34,436 nt of DNA from Candidatus Omnitrophota bacterium (lineage in GTDB: Bacteria; Omnitrophota; Gorgyraeia; Gygaellales; JAHJCI01). The stretch lies in the NCBI GenBank assembly GCA_029932935.1, contig JAOZPD010000004.1, positions 1 to 34,436 of the forward strand. The letters run 5' to 3'. Positions 1,264 to 7,960 of the stretch are shown piece by piece (position 1 is the first letter of the stretch; every line of letters begins with the position of its first letter). Below the pieces are notes generated by a model, which was not told the DNA's origin, did no database searches, and saw only the letters and a program-made list of their open reading frames with translations. Both the position numbers and the translations under genes were made by a program.

Positions 1264-1372
1264 ATCTTTCTTAAAGAGATATTAGCACTAACACCTATTC
1301 CTGATAATAACTTTATATAAATTCTATCATAAAAACTTACTTCAACAAGACAATTCGTATAAATCATTTATT

Positions 1373-1412
1373 AAAAAAATTCCCGCACCTCGAACAAGAA
1401 TCAAGGTGCGGG
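1373..1412 (-). terminator. Rho-independent terminator downstream of the major pilin gene
   Basis: The minus strand reads CCCGCACCU-UGAUUCUUGUUCG-AGGUGCGGG, a 9-bp GC-rich stem (1412..1382). It is followed by AAUUUUUUU (U-run 1379..1373) and lies 46 nt after the pilin stop codon. Confidence 0.85.
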
Positions 1413-1457
1413 GTTAAATCAAGCTAATCTAAACAAGAATACACTCAAAGCAAGACC

Positions 1458-1880
1458 TCAACCGCCACCGCCGCCGCCACCGCCGCCACAGGCAGCAGAT
1501 GTTAAAACCCCTCCGGTCGTAATAGTAAATGTCCTGGTACCGGTGGTGTTGCAGGTCGTAGGAGTAGCTGTACAACTGTATCCAGTAGCTGCTAATGTAC
1601 CGCAGGCAAAGGCATAACCCTGTCTTGCTGAAGCTGTATAATCCTCATTTAGATATGGCGGATTTGCTCCTGTTAAAGTAGCTATTGAAGTAGGATAATT
1701 TCCGTTGTTTGCTGCAGCATAGCTCTCACAAGCAGTGGAGATTGTGCGTAAGGTGGCTTGGGCATTGCTCTCATTAGCATTAACTCGGGCCCTGAGAAGA
1801 TTGGGTATGGCGATTGCCGCTAATAAAGCAACGATTGCCACTACTATCATGATTTCAACCAATGTAAAACCTCTTCTCAT
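1458..1880 (-). CDS. pilA: Major type IV pilin (prepilin) with a C-terminal Gly9 tail
   Basis: 140 aa. MRRG|FTLVEIMIVVAIVALLAAIAIPNLLRARVNANESNAQATLRTIS is a textbook type IV pilin N-terminus. Five Cys lie in the globular domain. An extended SD GAAAGGAGGU sits 8 nt upstream of the ATG. The gene has its own terminator and ends ..AACGGGGGGGGG*. Confidence 0.9.
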   Translation of the reverse strand: MRRGFTLVEIMIVVAIVALLAAIAIPNLLRARVNANESNAQATLRTISTACESYAAANNGNYPTSIATLTGANPPYLNEDYTASARQGYAFACGTLAATGYSCTATPTTCNTTGTRTFTITTGGVLTSAACGGGGGGGGG

Positions 1881-1968
1881 CTTCGCTTACCTCCTTTCCA
1901 AAGGCTGGATTAGACTTGGATTACGCTTAAGTTCGAATAAATTAAGCCTAGAACTATCTGCGCCTGCC

Positions 1969-1994
1969 TTGCCTGTCTGGCACGAAACAGGCAA
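1969..1994 (-). promoter_or_regulatory. Stable hairpin in the pilin 5' UTR
   Basis: UUGCCUGU (1994..1987 on the minus strand) pairs with ACAGGCAA (1976..1969), giving an 8-bp perfect stem with a 10-nt loop. An adjacent imperfect GGCAGGAC/GUCCUUUGCC hairpin lies just upstream. Confidence 0.5.
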
Positions 1995-2038
1995 AGGACA
2001 GAATCAAGTCCTGCCCTTTTTTTTTAAAAACTCACGTT

Positions 2039-2067
2039 CTTATATCACCTCCTTTCTTACTTGTCAA
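2039..2067 (-). promoter_or_regulatory. Sigma70-type promoter candidate for the major pilin gene
   Basis: Minus strand: TTGACA (2067..2062), 17-nt spacer, TATAAG (2044..2039). This predicts a 5' UTR of roughly 150 nt. Caveat: the spacer itself is a perfect SD-like GAAAGGAGGUGA. Confidence 0.5.
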
Positions 2068-2080
2068 GCAAAATCTAACC

Positions 2081-2192
2081 CCGCACCTTTTATCTATTCC
2101 CACAAGATACTCTTTAAATATCTGAAAGGAGCGGAAAAAATTTAACCCCGCTCTTAATATTCCGCGTGATACTCGCAGATATTGACGGGGCT
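2081..2192 (-). promoter_or_regulatory. Two consecutive hairpin + U-run modules (terminator-like/attenuator-like) in the pilin leader
   Basis: Module A: AGCCCCG (2192..2186) pairs with CGGGGUU (2150..2144), with inner AAUAU/AUAUU and CUGCG/CGCGG helices, followed by AAAUUUUUU (2143..2135). Module B: CCGCUCCUUU (2134..2125) pairs with AAAGGUGCGG (2090..2081) at 9 of 10 bp, followed by GGUUAGAUUUUG. GAGCGG in A can alternatively pair with CCGCUC in B. Confidence 0.45.
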
Positions 2193-2194
2193 CA

Positions 2195-2226
2195 CAAAAA
2201 ACCTATTCTCCATTTGAAGAATAGGT
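2195..2226 (-). terminator. Intrinsic terminator forming the expression platform of the GEMM-I element
   Basis: The minus strand reads ACCUAUUCU-UCAAAUGG-AGAAUAGGU, a 9-bp perfect stem (2226..2201), followed by UUUUUU (2200..2195). Confidence 0.8.
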
Positions 2227-2264
2227 TTGCAAAGTATAGTAATCTAAATTAAATATAATACCGC

Positions 2265-2350
2265 TTTCTGGCAACTGGCTACCCTTTGATTTCTCTCCGG
2301 GCCCTATAGCTTTGCGCCCCATCTTTTCAAATGGTTAGCCTTTTCTCCGG
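2265..2350 (-). promoter_or_regulatory. c-di-GMP-I (GEMM-I) riboswitch aptamer
   Basis: The minus strand 2340->2270 reads GGCUAACCAUUUGAAAAGAUGGGGCGCAAAGC...GGGUAGCCAGUUGCC. It matches the recalled Vc2 core GGCAAACCAUUCGAAAGAGUGGGACGCAAAGC at 26/32 positions. Differences inside the GAAA-capped helix are compensatory. The GCAAAGC junction and GGUAGC..GUUGCC 3' strand are conserved. The second hairpin is atypical and I could not fold it by eye. Confidence 0.75.
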
Positions 2351-2421
2351 CTGAGCAATATCAGCTGCGGAATCCCGCCCTAAAGCTTATGGCGGAACAG
2401 AAACGCCTTAATTCTACTTAA

Positions 2422-2449
2422 AGTATAACATGTGACTGTAAATTTTCAA
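2422..2449 (-). promoter_or_regulatory. Sigma70-type promoter with extended -10, driving the riboswitch transcript
   Basis: Minus strand: TTGAAA (2449..2444), 16-nt spacer ending in TGt, TATACT (2427..2422). It lies about 40 nt downstream of the pilC stop codon. Confidence 0.55.
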
Positions 2450-2490
2450 GATAATTGTATTTCTATCCTAACACAGATAATATATTAAGA

Positions 2491-3702
2491 CTAACGACTT
2501 ATCAGCTGCGTTATCTGAAAGATAGGTAAAAATAAGGCAATTACAATACCACCAATAATGATACCCAGGAAGGCAATAACCAACGGCTCAATCATACTGG
2601 TTAAACCCGCAACAGCAGCATCTACCTGCTCATCATAAAAATCGGCAATCTTGGTAAGCATTATTTCCAATTTTCCCGTCTGTTCACCCACGGCAATCAT
2701 TGCTGTAACCATAGGAGGAAAAACACCACTCCTGGTTAAAGGCTGCGCAATCGGTTCTCCCTCACGAACAGAATGCAAGGAATTACTCACCGCCTCCTCT
2801 ACCACCTTATTACCAGATGTCCTTGCCACAATATTCAGTGCATCAAGGATAGACACACCACTCCTGACCAATGTCGAGAGTGTACGGGAAAACTTCGCAA
2901 CAGCTACCTTACGAAAGAGTTCCCCCACAACAGGTAGCTTAAGAGTCATCTTATCAAAATTATATCTTCCTTTATCTGTATTAATATATCTCTTAAAGAG
3001 GAAAACCAGAATAAAAATACCAATAACCACAAAGATAAACATTCTCCTTAACAAATCACTAATCGCAATAAGTATAAGGGTCGGTAACGGCAAATTGCCA
3101 CCCAGCATATCAAATATCCCCTTGAACGTAGGCACAACCTTAAGTAGTAGAACAGCAGTAATCAAGATAGCCATAGTAAGCACAACTGCTGGATAGATAA
3201 GACTTGATTTAACCTTCCTTGTTAAGGCAGCCATTTTCTCCAGATAAGTCGCTATCCTGCCTAAAACGTCATCAAGCATCCCAGATGTCTCTCCTGCACG
3301 CACCATACTAACAAAAAACGTAGAAAACATACGAGGATATCTGGCTAAGCTATCACAGAAACTCAATCCAGACTCTACGTCCTGACGGATCATAAAAACA
3401 ACATTTTTAAGAGCTGGTGCCTCCACCTGATCAATCAATATTCTCAAGGCGCCTACTAAAGGAATACCAGAATCAATCAAGGTAGCCAGCTGGCGAGAAA
3501 AAACAACCAAGTCATCCATTTTCACCCTACCACCGCCTCGCTGTCGCTTAGCAATGGTTTTTTTCTTCGTCAGCTTTACAGAGACTACCGTCAATTCTCT
3601 CTTATGCAACTGTTGTATAACCTCATTCTCATTGGCAGCTTCGATAATACCATTTACTGTCTGTGCAGTTTTATCTTTAGCTGTATATTGGAATGTAGGC
3701 AT
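2491..3702 (-). CDS. pilC: Type IV pilus platform protein PilC (GspF family)
   Basis: 403 aa. It has two T2SS-F repeats (..FSRQLATLIDSGIPLVGAL.. and ..FSRTLSTLVRSGVSILDAL..) and three TM segments. AAGGAG SD sits 6 nt upstream of the ATG at 3702. Confidence 0.93.
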   Translation of the reverse strand: MPTFQYTAKDKTAQTVNGIIEAANENEVIQQLHKRELTVVSVKLTKKKTIAKRQRGGGRVKMDDLVVFSRQLATLIDSGIPLVGALRILIDQVEAPALKNVVFMIRQDVESGLSFCDSLARYPRMFSTFFVSMVRAGETSGMLDDVLGRIATYLEKMAALTRKVKSSLIYPAVVLTMAILITAVLLLKVVPTFKGIFDMLGGNLPLPTLILIAISDLLRRMFIFVVIGIFILVFLFKRYINTDKGRYNFDKMTLKLPVVGELFRKVAVAKFSRTLSTLVRSGVSILDALNIVARTSGNKVVEEAVSNSLHSVREGEPIAQPLTRSGVFPPMVTAMIAVGEQTGKLEIMLTKIADFYDEQVDAAVAGLTSMIEPLVIAFLGIIIGGIVIALFLPIFQITQLISR

Positions 3703-3734: not shown

Positions 3735-5450
3735 TTATTCCTCAGTTGTTATACGTACAGCCTCATCCAGAGTAGTCAACCCCTGTTTTGCCTTCAGTAG
3801 AGCATCGTCACGCAACGTCCTCATACCTTTCTTTTTTATAGCGTATGCCTTGATTTCCTCGAGGGACCCTTTCTTAATAATTAACTGACGGATATAATCA
3901 TCGATCATCAAAACCTCTAACACGGCGATTCTTCCGAAGTAGCCTGTATTATTACAATAGTCACAGCCCTTAGCCTGGTAAAAGGTCGCCTTCTCTTTAA
4001 TTCCCAGCCCCTTAAGAATCTCGCCGGGAGCATCGTATATCTGACGACACTTATTACAAAGTCTTCTACATAGCCGTTGGGCACACGCCATAATTAAACT
4101 GGAGGCCACCAAGAAAGGCTCAATCCCCATATCAATAAGTCTGGTAATACTGGAAGCGGCGTCGTTAGTATGAAGCGTAGAAAGAAGTAATTGTCCGGTT
4201 AAAGCGGCTTTAATAGCGATATCCGCGGTTTCCGAATCACGAATCTCACCCACCATAATTACATCCGGACTCTGACGAAGCACAGAACGCAAACCAGAGG
4301 CAAAATCCAGACCAATCTCATGATGCGCCTGAACCTGAGTAATCCCCTCAATCTCATATTCTACGGGGTCCTCAATAGTAACAATGCTTCTCTCTGGTGT
4401 ATTTAATTGATTTACTATGGAATAAAGGGTTGTAGATTTACCGCTACCTGTCGGTCCAGTTACCAGAATCATACCAAAAGGATGAGCGATTGCCTCTTTG
4501 AATAAACGTAATGGCTCCTCAGAAAATCCTAACTTATCTAACCCCACAGAAAGATTGGATTTATCTAAGGCACGTAAAACAAATTTCTGGCCAAAAGTGG
4601 TAGGTAATGCAGATACTCGAAAATCTATCTCCTTATTCTCTAGGCGTACTTTAAATCTACCATCCTGAGGCAGACGGCTTTCAGTAATATTCATATTAGA
4701 TATTATCTTTAAACGCGCCAATACGGCATTCTGATTTTTCTTGGGTAGTCTCAATACATCGTATAAATCGCCATCGATGCGATAACGGACACGCAAGCAA
4801 TCCTCTTCAGGTTCTACATGAATATCCGAAGACCTCCGCTTTAAAGCCTGTATCAACATCAGATCAACAAGTTTAACGATGGGGGGGGTCTGGCTCTCGC
4901 GTACTGCCTGCGTCAACTCCAATTCTTCGGTCACCTGGACATCTGAAACCATCTCTCTTTCCCCCTCTAACGCCCCCTTAGAAATCTCGCCAAGAATCTT
5001 CTGTAAATCAGCTGCGTCTTTATGATACTGCTTATCTATTGCTGCCCTGATTTCATCCTCAGAACTCAAAACAATATCTATATCGCATCCGGTTAATGTC
5101 TTCAGGTCATCCAGAGCAAAAATATTAAAGGGATCGGTCATTGCTATGGTCATGGTATTCCCCATACGGGAGAGAGGAATAATCCCGTATCTTAGACAAA
5201 TCTGCTCAGGAACCAGTGAAATAACCTTTGGATCAAATTTGTATTTTGCCAGACGCAGAAAAGGCAGATACAGATGTTCCGAGAGAATGGAAAGCAGTTC
5301 CTGTTCAGAGATAATCTTTTCCTTTAATAATAACTGCCTCAGAGACAATTTCTTCCTCTTTTGTAATTGAATCAACTCATCAAGCTTTTCCTTGGGTATA
5401 GATTTATATCTCACCAATATATCGACTAATCTTTCCTTTAAATTTATCAT
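3735..5450 (-). CDS. pilB: PilB/GspE-type assembly ATPase, paralogue 2
   Basis: 571 aa. It has an N-terminal MshEN/T2SSE_N domain, Walker A GPTGSGKST, Asp/His boxes, and a tetracysteine motif CNKC..GCDYC typical of extension ATPases. Confidence 0.92.
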   Translation of the reverse strand: MINLKERLVDILVRYKSIPKEKLDELIQLQKRKKLSLRQLLLKEKIISEQELLSILSEHLYLPFLRLAKYKFDPKVISLVPEQICLRYGIIPLSRMGNTMTIAMTDPFNIFALDDLKTLTGCDIDIVLSSEDEIRAAIDKQYHKDAADLQKILGEISKGALEGEREMVSDVQVTEELELTQAVRESQTPPIVKLVDLMLIQALKRRSSDIHVEPEEDCLRVRYRIDGDLYDVLRLPKKNQNAVLARLKIISNMNITESRLPQDGRFKVRLENKEIDFRVSALPTTFGQKFVLRALDKSNLSVGLDKLGFSEEPLRLFKEAIAHPFGMILVTGPTGSGKSTTLYSIVNQLNTPERSIVTIEDPVEYEIEGITQVQAHHEIGLDFASGLRSVLRQSPDVIMVGEIRDSETADIAIKAALTGQLLLSTLHTNDAASSITRLIDMGIEPFLVASSLIMACAQRLCRRLCNKCRQIYDAPGEILKGLGIKEKATFYQAKGCDYCNNTGYFGRIAVLEVLMIDDYIRQLIIKKGSLEEIKAYAIKKKGMRTLRDDALLKAKQGLTTLDEAVRITTEE

Positions 5451-5537
5451 CGCTATTTTATATTATATACCCTATTTTTTCTCATCGGATAACTATGTCA
5501 TCAAACAAAATAACATTATTCTACAGTATTTACGGAA

Positions 5538-7241
5538 TCAGGCAGCGGTTACACGTAGAACCTCTTCCAGTGAAGTCTCTCCCTGCAAGGCAAGTGCAAG
5601 CGCATTTTCTCTTAATGTCTTCATACCTTCTCTGCAGGCCAACTGCTTAATCTGGAGTTCCTCTGCTCCAGATAAAATCAAATTTTTTATATCGGAAGAA
5701 AGTAATAATACCTCAGCGATTCCCAATCTTCCTGAATAACCCGTTTTAAAACAATACTTACACCCTAAGGGACGATAAAATGCGGAATGCGAAACCCCAG
5801 ATAAATCCAACCGCTTAATCATCTCTTTATTAAGCTCGTACCTTTCTTTACATTTAGGACATAATCTACGCACTAACCTCTGAGCAACCACACAAATAAG
5901 AGAAGAGGTAATCAAGTAAGGTTCCACCCCCATATTCACTAAGCGTACAATCGCACCACTTGAGGTAGTAGTATGCAAAGTAGAAAGTACCAAATGTCCT
6001 GTAAGTGCACTTTTAATGGCGATATCCACAGTCTCGAAATCGCGTATCTCGCCAATCATAATTACATTAGGATCCTGTCTCAGGATAGAGCGTAATGCTG
6101 AGGCAAAGGTAAGCCCAATATCGGGCTTTATGGTCACCTGATTTATACCTTCCAGCTGAAATTCCACCGGGTCTTCAACTGTAACGAGGTTCTTCTGCGG
6201 AGAATCTATAAATTTAAGAATAGAGTATAATGTAGTAGTTTTGCCGCTACCAGTGGGACCGCAGACCAATATCATTCCATGAGGAGCAGAGGCTGCCTTT
6301 TTTAATTTGGCTACACTTGAATCATCAAAACCTAATTTATCCACATCTAATGATGCTTGAGATTTATCCAGAATCCTTATCGCTGCCTTCTCCCCCTGAC
6401 TGGAGGGAAGTATCGAAACGCGAAAATCAACGAACCTATTCTGAATTCTTACCTTAAATCTACCATCCTGTGGCAATCTATGTTCTGCAATATCCAACTC
6501 AGATAACACCTTTATACGCGAAATAAGCAAAGGATGCATTGATTTAGGAGGAGCTTCTTGTTCGCGAAGAACACCGTCTATACGGAAGCGTATCCTCAAA
6601 CTTTCAGGCATCGGTTCAATAAGGATATCGGATGCCTTTTTCTTAATCGCCTCCTCTAAAATCATATTTGTCAATCGAATAGCCGGGCCCTGCCTACTGG
6701 CAAGACCCAGCTCCTGGTCACTCAGTGTATCCCTCTTCTTTTCCTGAATCAGTTCTATCTTGGACTCACTAATCTCATCGAGAAGCTCCTCTATTATACC
6801 GGTGGTTGTATCCGGATAAAACTGATCAATTGCCTGGATAATCTGATCGGTAGTTGATATAATGGGATTTATCTGAAAACCGGTTAGATTGCGTAAAGCA
6901 TCTATGGCAAAGATATTCAATGGATCTGCCATAGCAATGGTGAGTGTATCACCCATCTGTGAGATAGGAATTATTTGATAATGGTAACAAATCTTAGCTG
7001 GTATAATGCTTAATACATCTGCATCTATTTTAATTCTTTTAAGGTCTATAAGCGGTAGTCCTAATCCTTCGCTTAAGGCAAAGGCAAGGTCGTTTTCTTT
7101 AACGAAACCCAAATCTACAATTATCTTACTTAATCGACCACCCTTAGTCTTCTGGATTTCTAAAGCCTGAGCCAACTGCTGGCGAGTAATAAGCTTGTTA
7201 TCGATTAATATCTCTGTAAGTCTTTCTTTTAAAGAAGTCAT
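5538..7241 (-). CDS. pilB: PilB/GspE-type assembly ATPase, paralogue 1
   Basis: 567 aa. The N-terminal MshEN domain has two 24-residue motifs separated by exactly 5 residues (RLTEILIDNKLITRQQLAQALEIQ-KTKGG-RLSKIIVDLGFVKENDLAFALSEG). It also has Walker A GPTGSGKTT and tetracysteine CPKC..GCKYC. Confidence 0.92.
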   Translation of the reverse strand: MTSLKERLTEILIDNKLITRQQLAQALEIQKTKGGRLSKIIVDLGFVKENDLAFALSEGLGLPLIDLKRIKIDADVLSIIPAKICYHYQIIPISQMGDTLTIAMADPLNIFAIDALRNLTGFQINPIISTTDQIIQAIDQFYPDTTTGIIEELLDEISESKIELIQEKKRDTLSDQELGLASRQGPAIRLTNMILEEAIKKKASDILIEPMPESLRIRFRIDGVLREQEAPPKSMHPLLISRIKVLSELDIAEHRLPQDGRFKVRIQNRFVDFRVSILPSSQGEKAAIRILDKSQASLDVDKLGFDDSSVAKLKKAASAPHGMILVCGPTGSGKTTTLYSILKFIDSPQKNLVTVEDPVEFQLEGINQVTIKPDIGLTFASALRSILRQDPNVIMIGEIRDFETVDIAIKSALTGHLVLSTLHTTTSSGAIVRLVNMGVEPYLITSSLICVVAQRLVRRLCPKCKERYELNKEMIKRLDLSGVSHSAFYRPLGCKYCFKTGYSGRLGIAEVLLLSSDIKNLILSGAEELQIKQLACREGMKTLRENALALALQGETSLEEVLRVTAA

Positions 7242-7251
7242 ATTCTATTTA

Positions 7252-7695
7252 TTATTTATGGTAATATTTCTCAATTGCCCTACGGATATCTCCAGATGTA
7301 CTTACAAATATTTGGACCTTACAGCCAGTGAGTTTCTCAAGTTTCTCAATTGCCTCATTATCTAAGGGATTACTCATGGCAACACTCAAGCTTTTGCTTA
7401 ATCTATCGACAGGCATACATAAATATTGTTTAGCTATCTCACAAGGGACCATCTCGACAACCTCAGAATCAATCTCATAGCTATCCAAGGGTAAATAAGG
7501 AAATCCATACTGGGCGGTTAATGCTTGGGCAATATCTTCCTCTTTAGCAAATCCCATCTCAACCAGTATTTCTCCTATTAACCCACCCTGCTCTTCCTTG
7601 ATAGAAAGGGCCTTCTGGAACTGCTCCGGAGTAATTATCCGCCTTTCAATAAGAATCTCCCCCAACAACTTATTAACGATTTTTCTTAACGGCAT
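7252..7695 (-). CDS. Stand-alone MshEN / GspE N-terminal domain protein (no ATPase domain)
   Basis: The ORF track gives 7252..7749 with a GTG start. The internal ATG at 7695 (MPLRKIVNKLLGEILIERRIITPEQFQKALSIK-EEQGG-LIGEILVEMGFAKEEDIAQALTAQ..) is the more likely start. The whole protein aligns with the first ~145 aa of the two PilB paralogues and then stops. Confidence 0.8.
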   Translation of the reverse strand: MPLRKIVNKLLGEILIERRIITPEQFQKALSIKEEQGGLIGEILVEMGFAKEEDIAQALTAQYGFPYLPLDSYEIDSEVVEMVPCEIAKQYLCMPVDRLSKSLSVAMSNPLDNEAIEKLEKLTGCKVQIFVSTSGDIRRAIEKYYHK

Positions 7696-7960
7696 ATCTA
7701 TTATCTTCCATCCTTTCTCTATCAAAACTATACTTGTTATAACTACCACAGCGAGGACAAACAGAGATTTCTGTCCTATGGGTAGTAAAATAGGTATATG
7801 TACAAATACTGCAACACCAGATAAATCTTGGACTTAGACTTAAAAAACTACCAAAAGAATCCTCCTCTCTTAGAAAAATCCACAAACAAAACACTACACC
7901 CAGAAGAATCAATAGATATAAAGACAGGGCTATAGAAAAATCAATCTTTACCATATACAT
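7673..7960 (-). CDS. Small membrane-anchored zinc-ribbon protein (hypothetical)
   Basis: 95 aa. It has one N-terminal TM helix (FSIALSLYLLILLGVVFCLWIF), then CSIC-x14-CPRC. The start codon overlaps the upstream stop as TAATG (7962..7958). The 3' end overlaps the next gene by 23 nt. Confidence 0.55.
   Translation of the reverse strand: MYMVKIDFSIALSLYLLILLGVVFCLWIFLREEDSFGSFLSLSPRFIWCCSICTYTYFTTHRTEISVCPRCGSYNKYSFDRERMEDNRYAVKKNR

Follow-up and report, generated by a model that had tools for sequence, protein, structure and literature searches.

A predicted class I c-di-GMP riboswitch with its own promoter and terminator between pilC and the major pilin gene of an Omnitrophota genome

Cd1, located upstream of the flgB operon of C. 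difficile, is a validated class I transcriptional OFF switch (PMC9262584). Its terminator is separate from the aptamer and both folds can coexist. The competing antiterminator arises when the terminator 5′ strand pairs with an aptamer strand, which opens the aptamer on its 3′ side, at the binding pocket (G147-C87 and C148-G86); ligand favours termination (PMC9262584). In the same species, the c-di-GMP riboswitch Cdi2_4 immediately precedes the major pilin gene pilA1; it has a terminator platform, a class II aptamer and ON polarity (PMC6366702). The pilM GEMM-Ib RNA, located upstream of pilus genes in Geobacter, senses cGAMP (A20) and acts by transcription termination as an ON switch, with mutually exclusive aptamer and terminator (PMC9262584). 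Vc2 of Vibrio cholerae, the structural reference for GEMM-I, was described as a translational switch (PMC9262584); in Vc2, G20 pairs with G-alpha and C92 forms a Watson-Crick pair with G-beta of c-di-GMP, while GEMM-Ib carries A at position 20 (PMC6140456). Finally, merRNA of Bdellovibrio bacteriovorus contains a c-di-GMP-I aptamer in a discrete, separately promoted and massively expressed 445-nt transcript, which has no conserved downstream ORF and need not control one (PMC3627812). Omnitrophota are uncultivated and their regulation is essentially unstudied; full-text literature searches returned no paper on a riboswitch in this phylum.

The window analysed here is a 34,436-nt chromosomal stretch of a Candidatus Omnitrophota genome. 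Its riboswitch-like element belongs by sequence to the same aptamer class as Cd1 and likewise has a separate terminator, compatible with the aptamer fold, whose 5′ strand is predicted to pair with an aptamer strand. In contrast to Cd1, this arm is directed at an internal hairpin, its conserved target being the 3′ strand of the GNRA-capped P2, and the element precedes a pilin gene instead of flagella genes, with a second promoter-like element between terminator and gene. In its terminator platform and in immediately preceding the major pilin gene, the element resembles Cdi2_4, from which it differs in aptamer class, in predicted polarity and in the additional promoter-like element, no separate downstream pilin promoter being mentioned in the passages of PMC6366702 consulted. 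Like the pilM RNA, it is a GEMM-type aptamer upstream of a pilus gene with a terminator, but it has G20, and its aptamer and terminator are compatible. The three-helix junction, the GNRA-capped hairpin and the G20, A47 and C92 equivalents are shared with Vc2, whereas the platform is a terminator and P3 is short. The separate promoter recalls merRNA; judged from sequence, however, the element is consistently found upstream of a pilin gene, and its terminator appears built to compete with the aptamer. The following features were assigned.

2491..3702, minus strand: pilC, directly upstream of the element (ORF; T2SSF family in Pfam)
2422..2449, minus strand: predicted riboswitch promoter, -35 TTGAAA at 2449..2444, 16-nt spacer, extended -10 TGTTATACT at 2430..2422 (scan and conservation)
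near 2415, minus strand: probable transcription start (AGAA), predicted from the promoter
2398..2406, minus strand: P1 5′ strand GCgUUUCUG, pairing with 2270..2263 in minimum free energy (MFE) folds
2346..2397, minus strand: two-hairpin insertion, hairpins 2397..2373 and 2371..2346 (folds and alignment A1)
2267..2350, minus strand: c-di-GMP-I aptamer core (RF01051 match)
2340, 2313 and 2271, minus strand: equivalents of G20, A47 and C92 (Rfam alignment)
2339/2314 and 2338/2315, minus strand: aptamer pairs G21-C46 and C22-G45 (Rfam alignment)
2319..2334, minus strand: P2 hairpin CCAUUU-GAAA-AGAUGG, GNRA tetraloop GAAA at 2328..2325 (covariance model and covariation)
2273..2311, minus strand: P3 hairpin AGCU..GG-GCCC / GGGU-AG-CC-AGUU with 14-nt purine-rich loop (covariance model and alignments)
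2263..2270, minus strand: P1 3′ strand CAGAAAGC (MFE folds and covariation)
2229..2262, minus strand: AU-rich linker from aptamer to terminator, not alignable between relatives
2196..2228, minus strand: predicted intrinsic terminator, 13-bp stem 2228..2216/2211..2199, AAAU loop 2215..2212, U6 2201..2196 (fold)
2210..2226, minus strand: proposed antiterminator partner ACCUAUUCUUCAAAUGG, comprising terminator 5′ arm, loop and 2 nt beyond (duplex and ensemble predictions)
2071..2192, minus strand: two further stable hairpins, 2192..2144 followed by AAAUUUUUU and 2143..2071 followed by a U-rich tail (fold)
2039..2067, minus strand: second promoter-like element, for the pilin gene, TTGACA at 2067..2062, 17-nt spacer, TGaTATAAG at 2047..2039 (sequence reading and conservation)
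about 2038..1881, minus strand: conserved, structured pilin leader (leader alignment and closing helix)
1880..1458, minus strand: pilin coding sequence, 140 aa, presumed read-through target (ORF; N_methyl in Pfam)

A first-pass annotation made from the sequence alone had proposed a c-di-GMP-I aptamer at 2340 to 2270 on the minus strand, between pilC and a type IV pilin gene. All sequences it described were found at their positions, and Pfam supported both flanking genes (T2SSF for PilC, N_methyl for the pilin). Covariance models for c-di-GMP-I and c-di-GMP-II were then compared as it had suggested. RF01051 (c-di-GMP-I) matched 2350..2267 on the minus strand with 57.7 bits (gathering score 35, E = 6e-9) over the full model (positions 1-87 of 87) and was the only Rfam match above gathering in the 34-kb window. 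The c-di-GMP-II model (RF01786) was not matched on either strand of 1400..2800 even at E <= 10, nor did it reach gathering anywhere in the window. The RF01051 gathering score was likewise exceeded by two homologues, L003 (64.9 bits) and L002 (56.2 bits). On these sequence grounds, the element is confirmed as a class I (GEMM-I, RF01051) c-di-GMP riboswitch. In a permissive scan (1400..2800, E <= 10), the best E-value was obtained with the variant model c-di-GMP-I-GGC (RF03167), the match being sub-threshold with 51 bits against a gathering score of 59. Membership of this variant was rejected on that score and on the reading CGCAAA, where the model consensus is CGCGAA (G at 47). L004 (63.2 bits) and L006 (59.2 bits) exceed the RF03167 gathering score, yet both read CGCAAA, and their match thus reflects the loose P3 of that model.

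Vc2 numbering was mapped onto the window by the Rfam alignment, supplemented by what we take to be the accepted correspondence of positions; the A47 equivalent presumably serves ligand intercalation. G2340 aligns with position 20, in agreement with the first reading. The G20, A47 and C92 equivalents were invariant in alignment A1 (7 sequences) and kept in six more divergent modules, position 20 being G and position 47 being A (CGCAAA or CACAAA) in 13/13 modules. Membership of GEMM-Ib (3′3′-cGAMP), for which A at position 20 was the criterion, was rejected on this basis. Since these three bases are canonical, the predicted ligand is c-di-GMP rather than cGAMP. At the 22-45 pair, C22-G45 and U22-A45 occurred in a ratio of 7:6.

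The same module, composed of a conserved promoter (TTGAAA-16-TGTTATACT), aptamer, linker and strong terminator, was present in 12 further loci, from 11 related metagenome-assembled genomes (MAGs) and one metagenome contig. It lay directly downstream of pilC in all 12 loci having pilC and upstream of the major pilin gene in 11 of 13, the next gene in L078 not being a pilin gene. Membership of merRNA-like orphan RNAs was rejected on account of this conserved downstream gene. Six divergent modules (GGUAAACC...CACAAAG, P2 insertions) escaped a regular-expression screen of the 80 related genome loci and were recovered with our own covariance model R1. With R1, the element was detected on the pilC strand directly after pilC in 11/80 loci in addition to the window. 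A pilin gene followed pilC in 13 genome loci, ten of which carried the element; in 51 loci, pilC was followed by an rRNA operon. It was conserved across PilC divergence down to ~60% identity and lost in L005, L007 and L040. Metagenomes were scanned with the pattern AACC-N12-22-CGCAAARCTAWAGGGC; among the matches listed, most were ordinary GEMM-I aptamers of other phyla, many from gut, and L085 was the sole Omnitrophota-type module. The 13 modules share descent, so that per-locus statistics are not independent.

Covariation supported the three-helix GEMM-I fold (P1, GNRA-capped P2 and P3). In the 13-sequence alignment A2, which was fitted to the covariance model, 92.4% of pair cells were paired and compensatory changes occurred at 13/25 pairs. 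In 500 shuffles, neither the percentage paired nor the number of compensatory pairs nor the covariation score ever came up to the values observed, and slid controls gave 28-47% paired. An independent MAFFT alignment of 7 sequences yielded 95.3% paired and 7 compensatory pairs. Compensatory changes were found at 5/5 pairs of the main P1 helix across the 13 sequences. The P2 helix had 92% of cells paired and also showed compensatory changes, its tetraloop reading GAAA, GUAA or GCAA across homologues. Docking of the P2 GNRA tetraloop into a P3 receptor is seen in most members of the class without being obligatory, and P3 of Vc2 contains the 11-nt GAAA tetraloop receptor. The canonical receptor was not found in P3 of the window, which bears out an earlier caveat that this second hairpin is atypical with a short GCCC/GGGU helix; a receptor-like CCUAAU...GAUGG occurs in P3 of the distant relatives L068, L070 and L079. 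A 52-nt insertion, seen as a 52-column gap in the other 6 sequences of A1, separates the P1 5′ strand from the A-rich junction in the window. It is missing from the closest relatives, and L058 has a comparable insertion at nearly the same site. Because the insertion interrupts P1, the full aptamer begins at ~2406, outside both the Rfam match and the core described at first.

The aptamer is bracketed by a predicted promoter and an intrinsic terminator. The proposed promoter at 2449..2422 proved to be the best promoter-like site in 1300..2800 (TTGAAA-16-TGtTATACT, 10/12 positions, extended TG), and TG[T/G]TATACT and its position were kept in 13/13 modules. The terminator, previously read as a 9-bp stem with U6, is real and stronger than described, with a 13-bp stem (strands AAACCUAUUCUUC / GGAGAAUAGGUUU, 2228..2199) and a dG of -15.5 kcal/mol; it escaped a consensus scanner solely through that scanner's requirement of at least 3 G-C pairs. 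Its core CCUAUUC / GAAUAGG occurs in 12/13 modules, the core of L078, CCCAUUC / GAAUGGG, being a compensatory change within the stem. Conservation of the stem sequence was dropped as the main argument for a dual constraint, since the stem of the terminator belonging to the pilin gene itself (CCCCGCACC / GGUGCGGGG) shows no less sequence conservation, which makes this argument weak on its own.

The complementarity between terminator arm and P2 was examined by duplex and ensemble calculations; all structural arguments are thermodynamic predictions. CCUAUUC, the 5′ arm of the terminator, has its complement in the P2 3′ strand; this strand and the Gs that follow it make up the proposed switching sequence. 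In the window, the antiterminator partner can pair with 2335..2317 (ACCAUUUGAAAAGAUGGGG), which corresponds to the unzipped P2 hairpin; this wider duplex (2335..2317 with 2226..2210) has a predicted energy of -16.8 kcal/mol (p = 0.001-0.004 against shuffled controls). A 9-nt complementarity noted earlier is exact, CCAUUUGAA (2334..2326) being the complement of UUCAAAUGG (2218..2210), although UUCAAAUGG forms the top of the terminator stem and its tetraloop and not an open 8-nt loop. The suggestion that it might be a ligand-sensitive alternative pairing gained support from shuffles and ensembles, in which it is part of a larger conserved antiterminator duplex. As a general feature, the loop-to-P2 pairing was rejected: exact CCAUUUG:CAAAUGG pairing is found in the window, L003 and L006 only, and what holds more generally is that the terminator 5′ arm can pair with the P2 3′ strand.

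Throughout the upstream transcript, the P2 3′ strand was the best partner of the terminator 5′-arm core in 10/13 modules. Ensembles were calculated for nascent transcripts ending just before the terminator 3′ arm. In 9/13 modules, the probability of the arm pairing with the P2 3′ strand was at least 0.84 and that of the P2 hairpin at most 0.05 (0.84 and 0.00, respectively, in the window). Re-imposing P2 costs 2-13 kcal/mol, a penalty that ligand binding in the pM-nM range could pay. Only ~10% of shuffled arms dissolved P2. Covarying changes pointed the same way: through a terminator U-A to C-G change, the 5′ arm of L078 becomes perfectly complementary over 9 nt to the P2 3′ strand of that module, and in L002 and L058 the P2 strand is changed to GAAUAGG, the perfect complement of CCUAUUC. 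The terminator arm-P2 complementarity is thus conserved and above chance. It is not uniform, because P2 is predicted to remain folded in 3/13 modules (L085, L067 and L058), L067 and L058 having another 9-nt complementarity instead, between the aptamer 3′ strand CCAGUU[A/G]CC and GGUAACUGG at the terminator top. L004 was divided ~50:50, and the duplex test against shuffles was not significant for L004, L085 and L067.

Upstream, no terminator lies between the pilC stop codon and the riboswitch, and read-through from the pilBC operon would therefore also meet the aptamer and terminator. Downstream, two hairpins (2192..2071, -39.2 kcal/mol, z = -2.2) found only in the window separate the riboswitch terminator from the pilin promoter-like element, where relatives have ~25-30 nt. 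This element was kept in ~11 loci, including the aptamer-free L005 and L007, and a Shine-Dalgarno-like AAGGAGGTGAT is conserved within its spacer. Lacking T at position 6 of the -10 hexamer, the element was not called by the scanner. L067 and L058 have a TTGAC-type promoter upstream of the riboswitch and no clear promoter between terminator and pilin gene, so that pilin expression there would depend on read-through. The pilin leader was considered as a second, degenerate aptamer, its 5′ end AAAAGGCAAGGC resembling AAAAGGCAAACC of the aptamer; this was rejected, as no Rfam match was obtained at E <= 10, and the leader showed only a closing helix with little covariation.

Taken as a model, the element would be a transcription-termination OFF switch of the type IV pilus cluster that gates read-through into the pilin gene, a reading that we hold to be somewhat better than an even bet. 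Its own promoter (-10 at 2427..2422) would drive its transcription, with pilBC read-through as a probable second source. With c-di-GMP bound, the three-helix aptamer (P1, P2, P3) would stay folded, the 13-bp/U6 terminator at 2228..2196 would form and the transcript would end as an RNA of ~220 nt. Without ligand, the terminator 5′ arm and loop, once transcribed, would invade P2 via its 3′ strand, in the window pairing also with the P2 5′ strand and tetraloop (2335..2317); the terminator would then not form in time and polymerase would continue to the pilin promoter region, leader and gene. The Cd1-like OFF polarity is suggested because aptamer and terminator are separate, do not overlap and form together in full-length MFE folds, while the terminator arm is predicted to invade P2. 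The terminator is present in every full-length equilibrium fold, so that switching would have to be kinetically controlled. Ligand binding, polarity and the effect of read-through on pilin expression are the predicted parts of this model. As the pilin gene has its own promoter-like element, the riboswitch would either gate only read-through or make a stand-alone RNA; both options had been put forward in the first-pass annotation, and gated read-through with OFF polarity is favoured here, the stand-alone RNA retaining some weight from the promoter-like element downstream. Given that element and the two hairpins, the contribution of read-through to pilin mRNA in the window may be small.

Alternatives concern the mode of action as well as the identity of the element. 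According to the most serious one, which we consider rather unlikely but worth retaining, the unit always terminates and yields a stand-alone c-di-GMP-binding sRNA that buffers or sponges c-di-GMP, a role proposed for Bdellovibrio merRNA, or acts in trans, the pilin gene being expressed independently from its own promoter. The conserved promoter and strong terminator would suit such an RNA, as would the separate conserved TTGACA-17-TGnTATAA element following in ~11 loci, the insulation of the unit from the pilin promoter by the two extra hairpins with U-rich tails, the non-pilin gene next to L078 and the precedent of merRNA as an orphan c-di-GMP riboswitch RNA (PMC3627812); the modules L085, L067 and L058, in which P2 is not predicted to be invaded, would by this account terminate constitutively. 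It leaves unexplained why the module keeps to one genomic site, just ahead of the major pilin gene in 11/13 cases, when merRNA has no conserved downstream ORF, and why the terminator arm should unzip P2 above chance, which would be purposeless in a constitutively terminated RNA; the apparent read-through dependence of pilin in L067 and L058 also argues against it. An ON switch, in which c-di-GMP prevents termination and raises pilin transcription, has a precedent in the class II riboswitch of C. difficile pilA1, where c-di-GMP induces type IV pili (PMC6366702), and would fit a cluster encoding three MshEN-domain proteins, MshEN being listed as a c-di-GMP-binding domain (PMC12448109). We strongly doubt it, as the terminator is a complete, autonomous hairpin that lies 20-35 nt or more beyond P1, has no nucleotide in common with the aptamer and coexists with the folded aptamer in every full-length MFE; its only conserved competitor is the aptamer strand that ligand binding would lock away, and no pairing was found that would let the bound aptamer tie up either arm of the terminator.

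As to identity, sensing of 3′3′-cGAMP or another cyclic dinucleotide, by GEMM-Ib or variant specificity, has to be weighed since GEMM-Ib resembles GEMM-I to covariance models and precedes Geobacter pilus genes (PMC9262584), and since the GGC-variant model took the best permissive E-value and was passed by L004 and L006. The invariant G at position 20 (A in GEMM-Ib; PMC6140456) and A at position 47 (G in the variant consensus), together with the window's score below the variant gathering score, make it highly improbable. Still less credence is given to a decaying or chance aptamer-like sequence without function, which was already disfavoured. The missing tetraloop receptor in P3, the interruption of P1 and the loss of the element in L005, L007 and L040 could be taken as signs of decay, but the RF01051 score is far above gathering, ligand-contact bases are invariant, compensatory changes accompany conservation down to ~60% PilC identity, and insertions are placed such that all helices stay intact.

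A more speculative reading, to which we attach only limited probability, is a two-output device instead of a plain leader, in which c-di-GMP would choose between a released, ligand-bound RNA and read-through, the terminator having evolved as a P2 mimic. The first output would be a discrete, terminator-stabilised RNA of ~150-270 nt that, in an ultra-small bacterium, would act in trans or, like merRNA, as a buffer; the second, read-through across the independent pilin promoter, would alter pilin output by promoter occlusion or by supplying a longer alternative leader.

GEMM-I is a well-known riboswitch class, and knowledge of the class is unchanged by the window element. The locus provides a candidate, testable link between c-di-GMP and major type IV pilin expression in Omnitrophota. 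A few natural GEMM-I variants are gained as well, with hairpin insertions at three sites and the U22-A45 swap; their platform is predicted to target the internal P2 and not the aptamer 3′ strand, which may be useful for the study and engineering of cyclic-dinucleotide riboswitches. Among the 30 ORFs scanned in the window, no diguanylate cyclase or phosphodiesterase gene was found; the three neighbouring MshEN-domain proteins (Pfam) may sense c-di-GMP at the protein level.

The whole 34-kb window was scanned with Rfam at gathering thresholds, and RF01051 (the c-di-GMP-I aptamer) was the sole match, at 2350..2267 on the minus strand (57.7 bits against a gathering threshold of 35, E = 6e-9, full model matched). 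Rescanning 1400..2800 permissively (E <= 10) gave a sub-threshold match of the c-di-GMP-I-GGC model at the same site (51 bits vs 59), two chance-level matches and none to c-di-GMP-II. The first-pass annotation had read a c-di-GMP-I riboswitch from 2195..2449; its minus-strand sequence was exact on re-reading, and a match to c-di-GMP-I with c-di-GMP-II absent was the outcome it had named as supportive. Since the aptamer passes the curated family threshold, any Rfam-based annotation would detect it. The riboswitch terminator and the adjoining pilus genes, the latter assigned with Pfam, are as follows.

2228..2216 with 2211..2199, minus strand: riboswitch terminator, 13-bp stem, AAAU loop, U6 run, dG -15.5 kcal/mol
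1458..1880, minus strand: pilin of 140 aa with N-terminal methylation motif, downstream of the riboswitch
2491..3702, minus strand: PilC-type platform protein (T2SSF)
3735..5450, minus strand: PilB-type ATPase with MshEN
5538..7241, minus strand: second PilB-type ATPase with MshEN
7252..7749, minus strand: small MshEN-only protein, 165 aa

Ligand-contacting positions were assigned from the Rfam alignment, and we take the following equivalences to Vc2, the Vibrio cholerae GEMM-I reference, to hold. G2340, immediately 5' of the two-pair G-C/C-G helix, corresponds to G20, as proposed at first pass; A2313, the first A past this helix, corresponds to A47, and C2271, the first C of the 3' GCC, to C92. 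All three are invariant in a seven-sequence aptamer alignment (A1) and are also kept in divergent modules. In Vc2, G-alpha is read by G20 and G-beta is paired with C92, and cGAMP-sensing GEMM-Ib RNAs carry A at position 20 (PMC6140456). The position-47 equivalent is G in the GGC-variant model consensus versus A in all sequences studied here. Because the three equivalents are kept, with an A at 47 unlike the GGC variant, the predicted ligand is c-di-GMP. The 11-nt GAAA receptor is absent from the P3 helix of the window, an arm already flagged as atypical; a receptor-like CCUAAU...GAUGG was found in the L068/L070/L079 group of loci.

Relatives of PilC were searched in one-genome-per-species bacterial and archaeal contigs, yielding 80 loci (best PilC identity ~80%), nearly all labelled Candidatus Omnitrophota MAGs, which places the window in an Omnitrophota genome. 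Among the 20 closest loci, Rfam placed the aptamer immediately after pilC in L002, L003, L004 and L006; L067 was added by a regex screen and the metagenome contig L085 by a metagenome scan, in which the other matches listed were ordinary GEMM-I aptamers from other phyla. The P1/P2/P3 structure was written out on A1, a MAFFT alignment, and pairs were counted: 95.3% of cells were paired and 7 pairs had compensatory changes, and none of 500 shuffles equalled the real alignment in pairing, compensatory pairs or covariation. From A1 we built a covariance model (R1), which gave 12 matches when run against the window plus the 80 loci, each on the pilC strand directly downstream of pilC. Six of these extended the set with more divergent modules (L058, L078, L079, L070, L068, L074; PilC ~60-65% identical). 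In the resulting 13-sequence alignment (A2), which was fitted to R1 and hence is biased towards the structure, 92.4% of cells were paired versus 28-47% with partners slid; the independent alignment A1 agrees. Compensatory changes occurred in 13/25 pairs of A2, including all five main-P1-helix pairs and junction pair C22-G45 (U22-A45 in six sequences), although such statistics overcount independent events, the 13 modules being related by descent.

A pilin gene follows pilC in 13/80 genome loci, and the riboswitch is present in 10 of these 13 and absent from L005, L007 and L040; in L078 it lies upstream of a different gene. A 16S-tRNA-23S rRNA operon is located ~350 nt after pilC, in place of the pilin gene, in 51/80 loci (among L008-L080), and its position directly after pilC accounts for the many contigs that end just past this gene. 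At 5250..5330 of L007 the riboswitch promoter TGTGTTATACTTTAAGTAGG is kept, aptamer and terminator are absent and the pilin promoter follows ~25 nt on, which looks like a clean riboswitch deletion leaving tandem promoters.

The promoter noted at first pass, TTGAAA-16-TGtTATACT (2449..2422), was the best-scoring promoter-like site within 1300..2800. All 13 modules carry TG[T/G]TATACT, in most cases preceded by TTGAAA or TTGAAT at a 16-nt spacing. The P1 5' strand and aptamer come about 15-25 nt further on, then a linker not alignable among loci and a terminator with U run. The lower terminator stem reads CCUAUUC / GAAUAGG in 12 modules and CCCAUUC / GAAUGGG in L078. The U6 terminator described earlier is present in the window, but its stem is longer (13 rather than 9 bp) and stronger than described; a consensus scanner left it uncalled only because it needs three G-C pairs. 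Transcript start and end positions are predictions. Insertions are tolerated at three kinds of site: two hairpins placed after the P1 5' strand and ahead of the junction (window, 2397..2346, and L058), two hairpins within the P2 5' strand (L068, L070, L074, L079) and a long P3 extension (L002, L085, L074).

Terminator and aptamer share no nucleotides, and full-length MFE folds contain both. This compatibility resembles Cd1 of C. difficile, a validated class I OFF switch in which both folds can be present together and are opposed by an antiterminator, and differs from Geobacter pilM, a cGAMP ON switch in which the two are mutually exclusive (PMC9262584). Partners for the 10-nt core of the terminator 5' arm were searched over all 14-nt windows of the upstream transcript; the best was the 3' strand of the GNRA-capped P2 hairpin (GAAUGGG and variants) in 10/13 modules. 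Equilibrium ensembles were computed for transcripts ending just before the terminator 3' arm. In 9/13 modules, including the window, the probability of the arm:P2-3' pairing was at least 0.84 and that of the P2 hairpin at most 0.05; L004 was about 50:50, and P2 was retained in L085, L067 and L058. With shuffled terminator 5' arm and loop only ~10% dissolved P2. Imposing the P2 hairpin carries a penalty of 2-13 kcal/mol, which pM-nM ligand binding could cover.

In the window, the duplex of ACCAUUUGAAAAGAUGGGG (2335..2317) with ACCUAUUCUUCAAAUGG (2226..2210) reaches -16.8 kcal/mol (p = 0.001-0.004). The alternative pairing put forward at first pass, CCAUUUGAA (2334..2326) with UUCAAAUGG (2218..2210), is exact and forms the outer half of this duplex; UUCAAAUGG is, however, the terminator stem top plus tetraloop and not an open loop. 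Changes at single loci point the same way. In L078 a C-G replaces a U-A terminator pair, and the 5' arm is thereby fully complementary to the P2 3' strand of that locus; the P2 strand of L002 and L058 has changed to GAAUAGG, a perfect complement of CCUAUUC. L067 and L058 have instead a 9-nt complementarity of the aptamer 3' strand CCAGUU(A/G)CC with GGUAACUGG at the terminator top, the two loci differing by an A-U to G.U change. Given the coexisting folds, the arm-P2 pairing and these changes, OFF logic is most likely on sequence and thermodynamic grounds: bound ligand would lock the aptamer, letting the terminator form and a short RNA result, and without ligand the aptamer would capture the terminator arm, giving read-through.

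Downstream of the terminator, a second promoter-like element, TTGACA-17-TGnTATAA(A/G), is conserved in about 11 loci (window 2067..2039, minus strand); next come a leader of 110-240 nt, likewise conserved, and the pilin ATG. It is consensus-like, with a -10 hexamer lacking T at position 6, and is kept in L005 and L007, which have no aptamer; in L067 and L058 the TTGAC-type promoter is found instead ahead of that of the riboswitch. As this element precedes the pilin leader, most loci seem to supply the pilin with a promoter of its own, and the riboswitch would then control only transcripts from its own promoter or from pilBC. In the window, the stretch from the pilC stop codon to the riboswitch gave no match in the terminator scan. 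Unique to the window is a pair of additional stable hairpins with U-rich tails (2192..2071, between riboswitch terminator and pilin promoter), which might block read-through. Owing to this possible block and the pilin's apparent promoter, a stand-alone RNA comparable to Bdellovibrio merRNA (PMC3627812) retains appreciable probability beside OFF control of read-through.

C-di-GMP riboswitches beside pilus genes are already known: a class II ON switch lies at C. difficile pilA1 (PMC6366702), and a GEMM-Ib switch at Geobacter pilM (PMC9262584). Class I OFF switches are known too (Cd1). No paper on an Omnitrophota riboswitch came up in full-text searches. New here are the phylum, the presence of a second promoter-like element in tandem, a switching strand proposed to lie in the internal P2 hairpin, and aptamer variants with insertions.

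The pilin promoter spacer (window 2039..2067, minus strand; about 11 loci) contains a conserved AAGGAGGTGAT, which we take to be a near-perfect complement of the 16S rRNA 3' end and very strongly Shine-Dalgarno-like; no conserved start codon was seen after it in these loci. Such spacer conservation is unusual and suggests an RNA-level function or a regulator binding site. The pilin leader (window 1881..2038, minus strand) is conserved in L003-L007, L085 and L002, and also in L068, L070, L074 and L079. Its long-range closing helix (AAAGGC + AAGGCUU with AAGYCUU ... GCCUUU), which encloses a variable domain, immediately precedes the ribosome binding site GGAAAGGAGG. At the leader's 5' end, AAAAGGCAAGGC is similar to AAAAGGCAAACC of the aptamer. 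The leader had no Rfam match and little covariation.

The window pilin ends in a nine-glycine run (...SAACGGGGGGGGG; 1458..1490, minus strand); those of L003, L004, L006 and L085 stop right after the conserved C-terminal cysteine. The pilin terminator (window 1382..1412, minus strand) is sequence-conserved in L003, L004, L005, L007 and L085 (CCCCGCACC ... GGUGCGGGG + U run). Its GGUGCGG motif is also seen in the loop of the riboswitch terminator and in the P3 extension of L002 and L085, and the L085 pilin terminator loop (CUAUUCC) matches the riboswitch terminator 5' arm; this sharing could reflect RNA-RNA contact or plain local duplication. The window-specific insertion of ~120 nt that forms the two hairpins noted above (2071..2192, minus strand) contains GGGAAUAG and GGUGCGGGG, fragments resembling the 3' arms of the two conserved terminators.

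Two further pilin-like ORFs lie downstream on the same strand, and elsewhere the window holds ordinary chromosomal genes (ExbBD, a TPR protein, UvrA, lysine and arginine biosynthesis, rplM/rpsI, RecJ); no GGDEF, EAL or HD-GYP genes were found among the 30 ORFs scanned. Three consecutive MshEN proteins are encoded at 3735..7749 (minus strand). Since c-di-GMP binding is ascribed to the MshEN domain (PMC12448109), the pilus cluster may sense this messenger through protein as well as RNA. In L002 only, a two-gene insertion (5273..5759; 80 aa and 83 aa) separates pilC from the riboswitch promoter, and its second gene (...YRLRSGDYRILYRIDD...) looks by eye like a RelE/ParE-type toxin.
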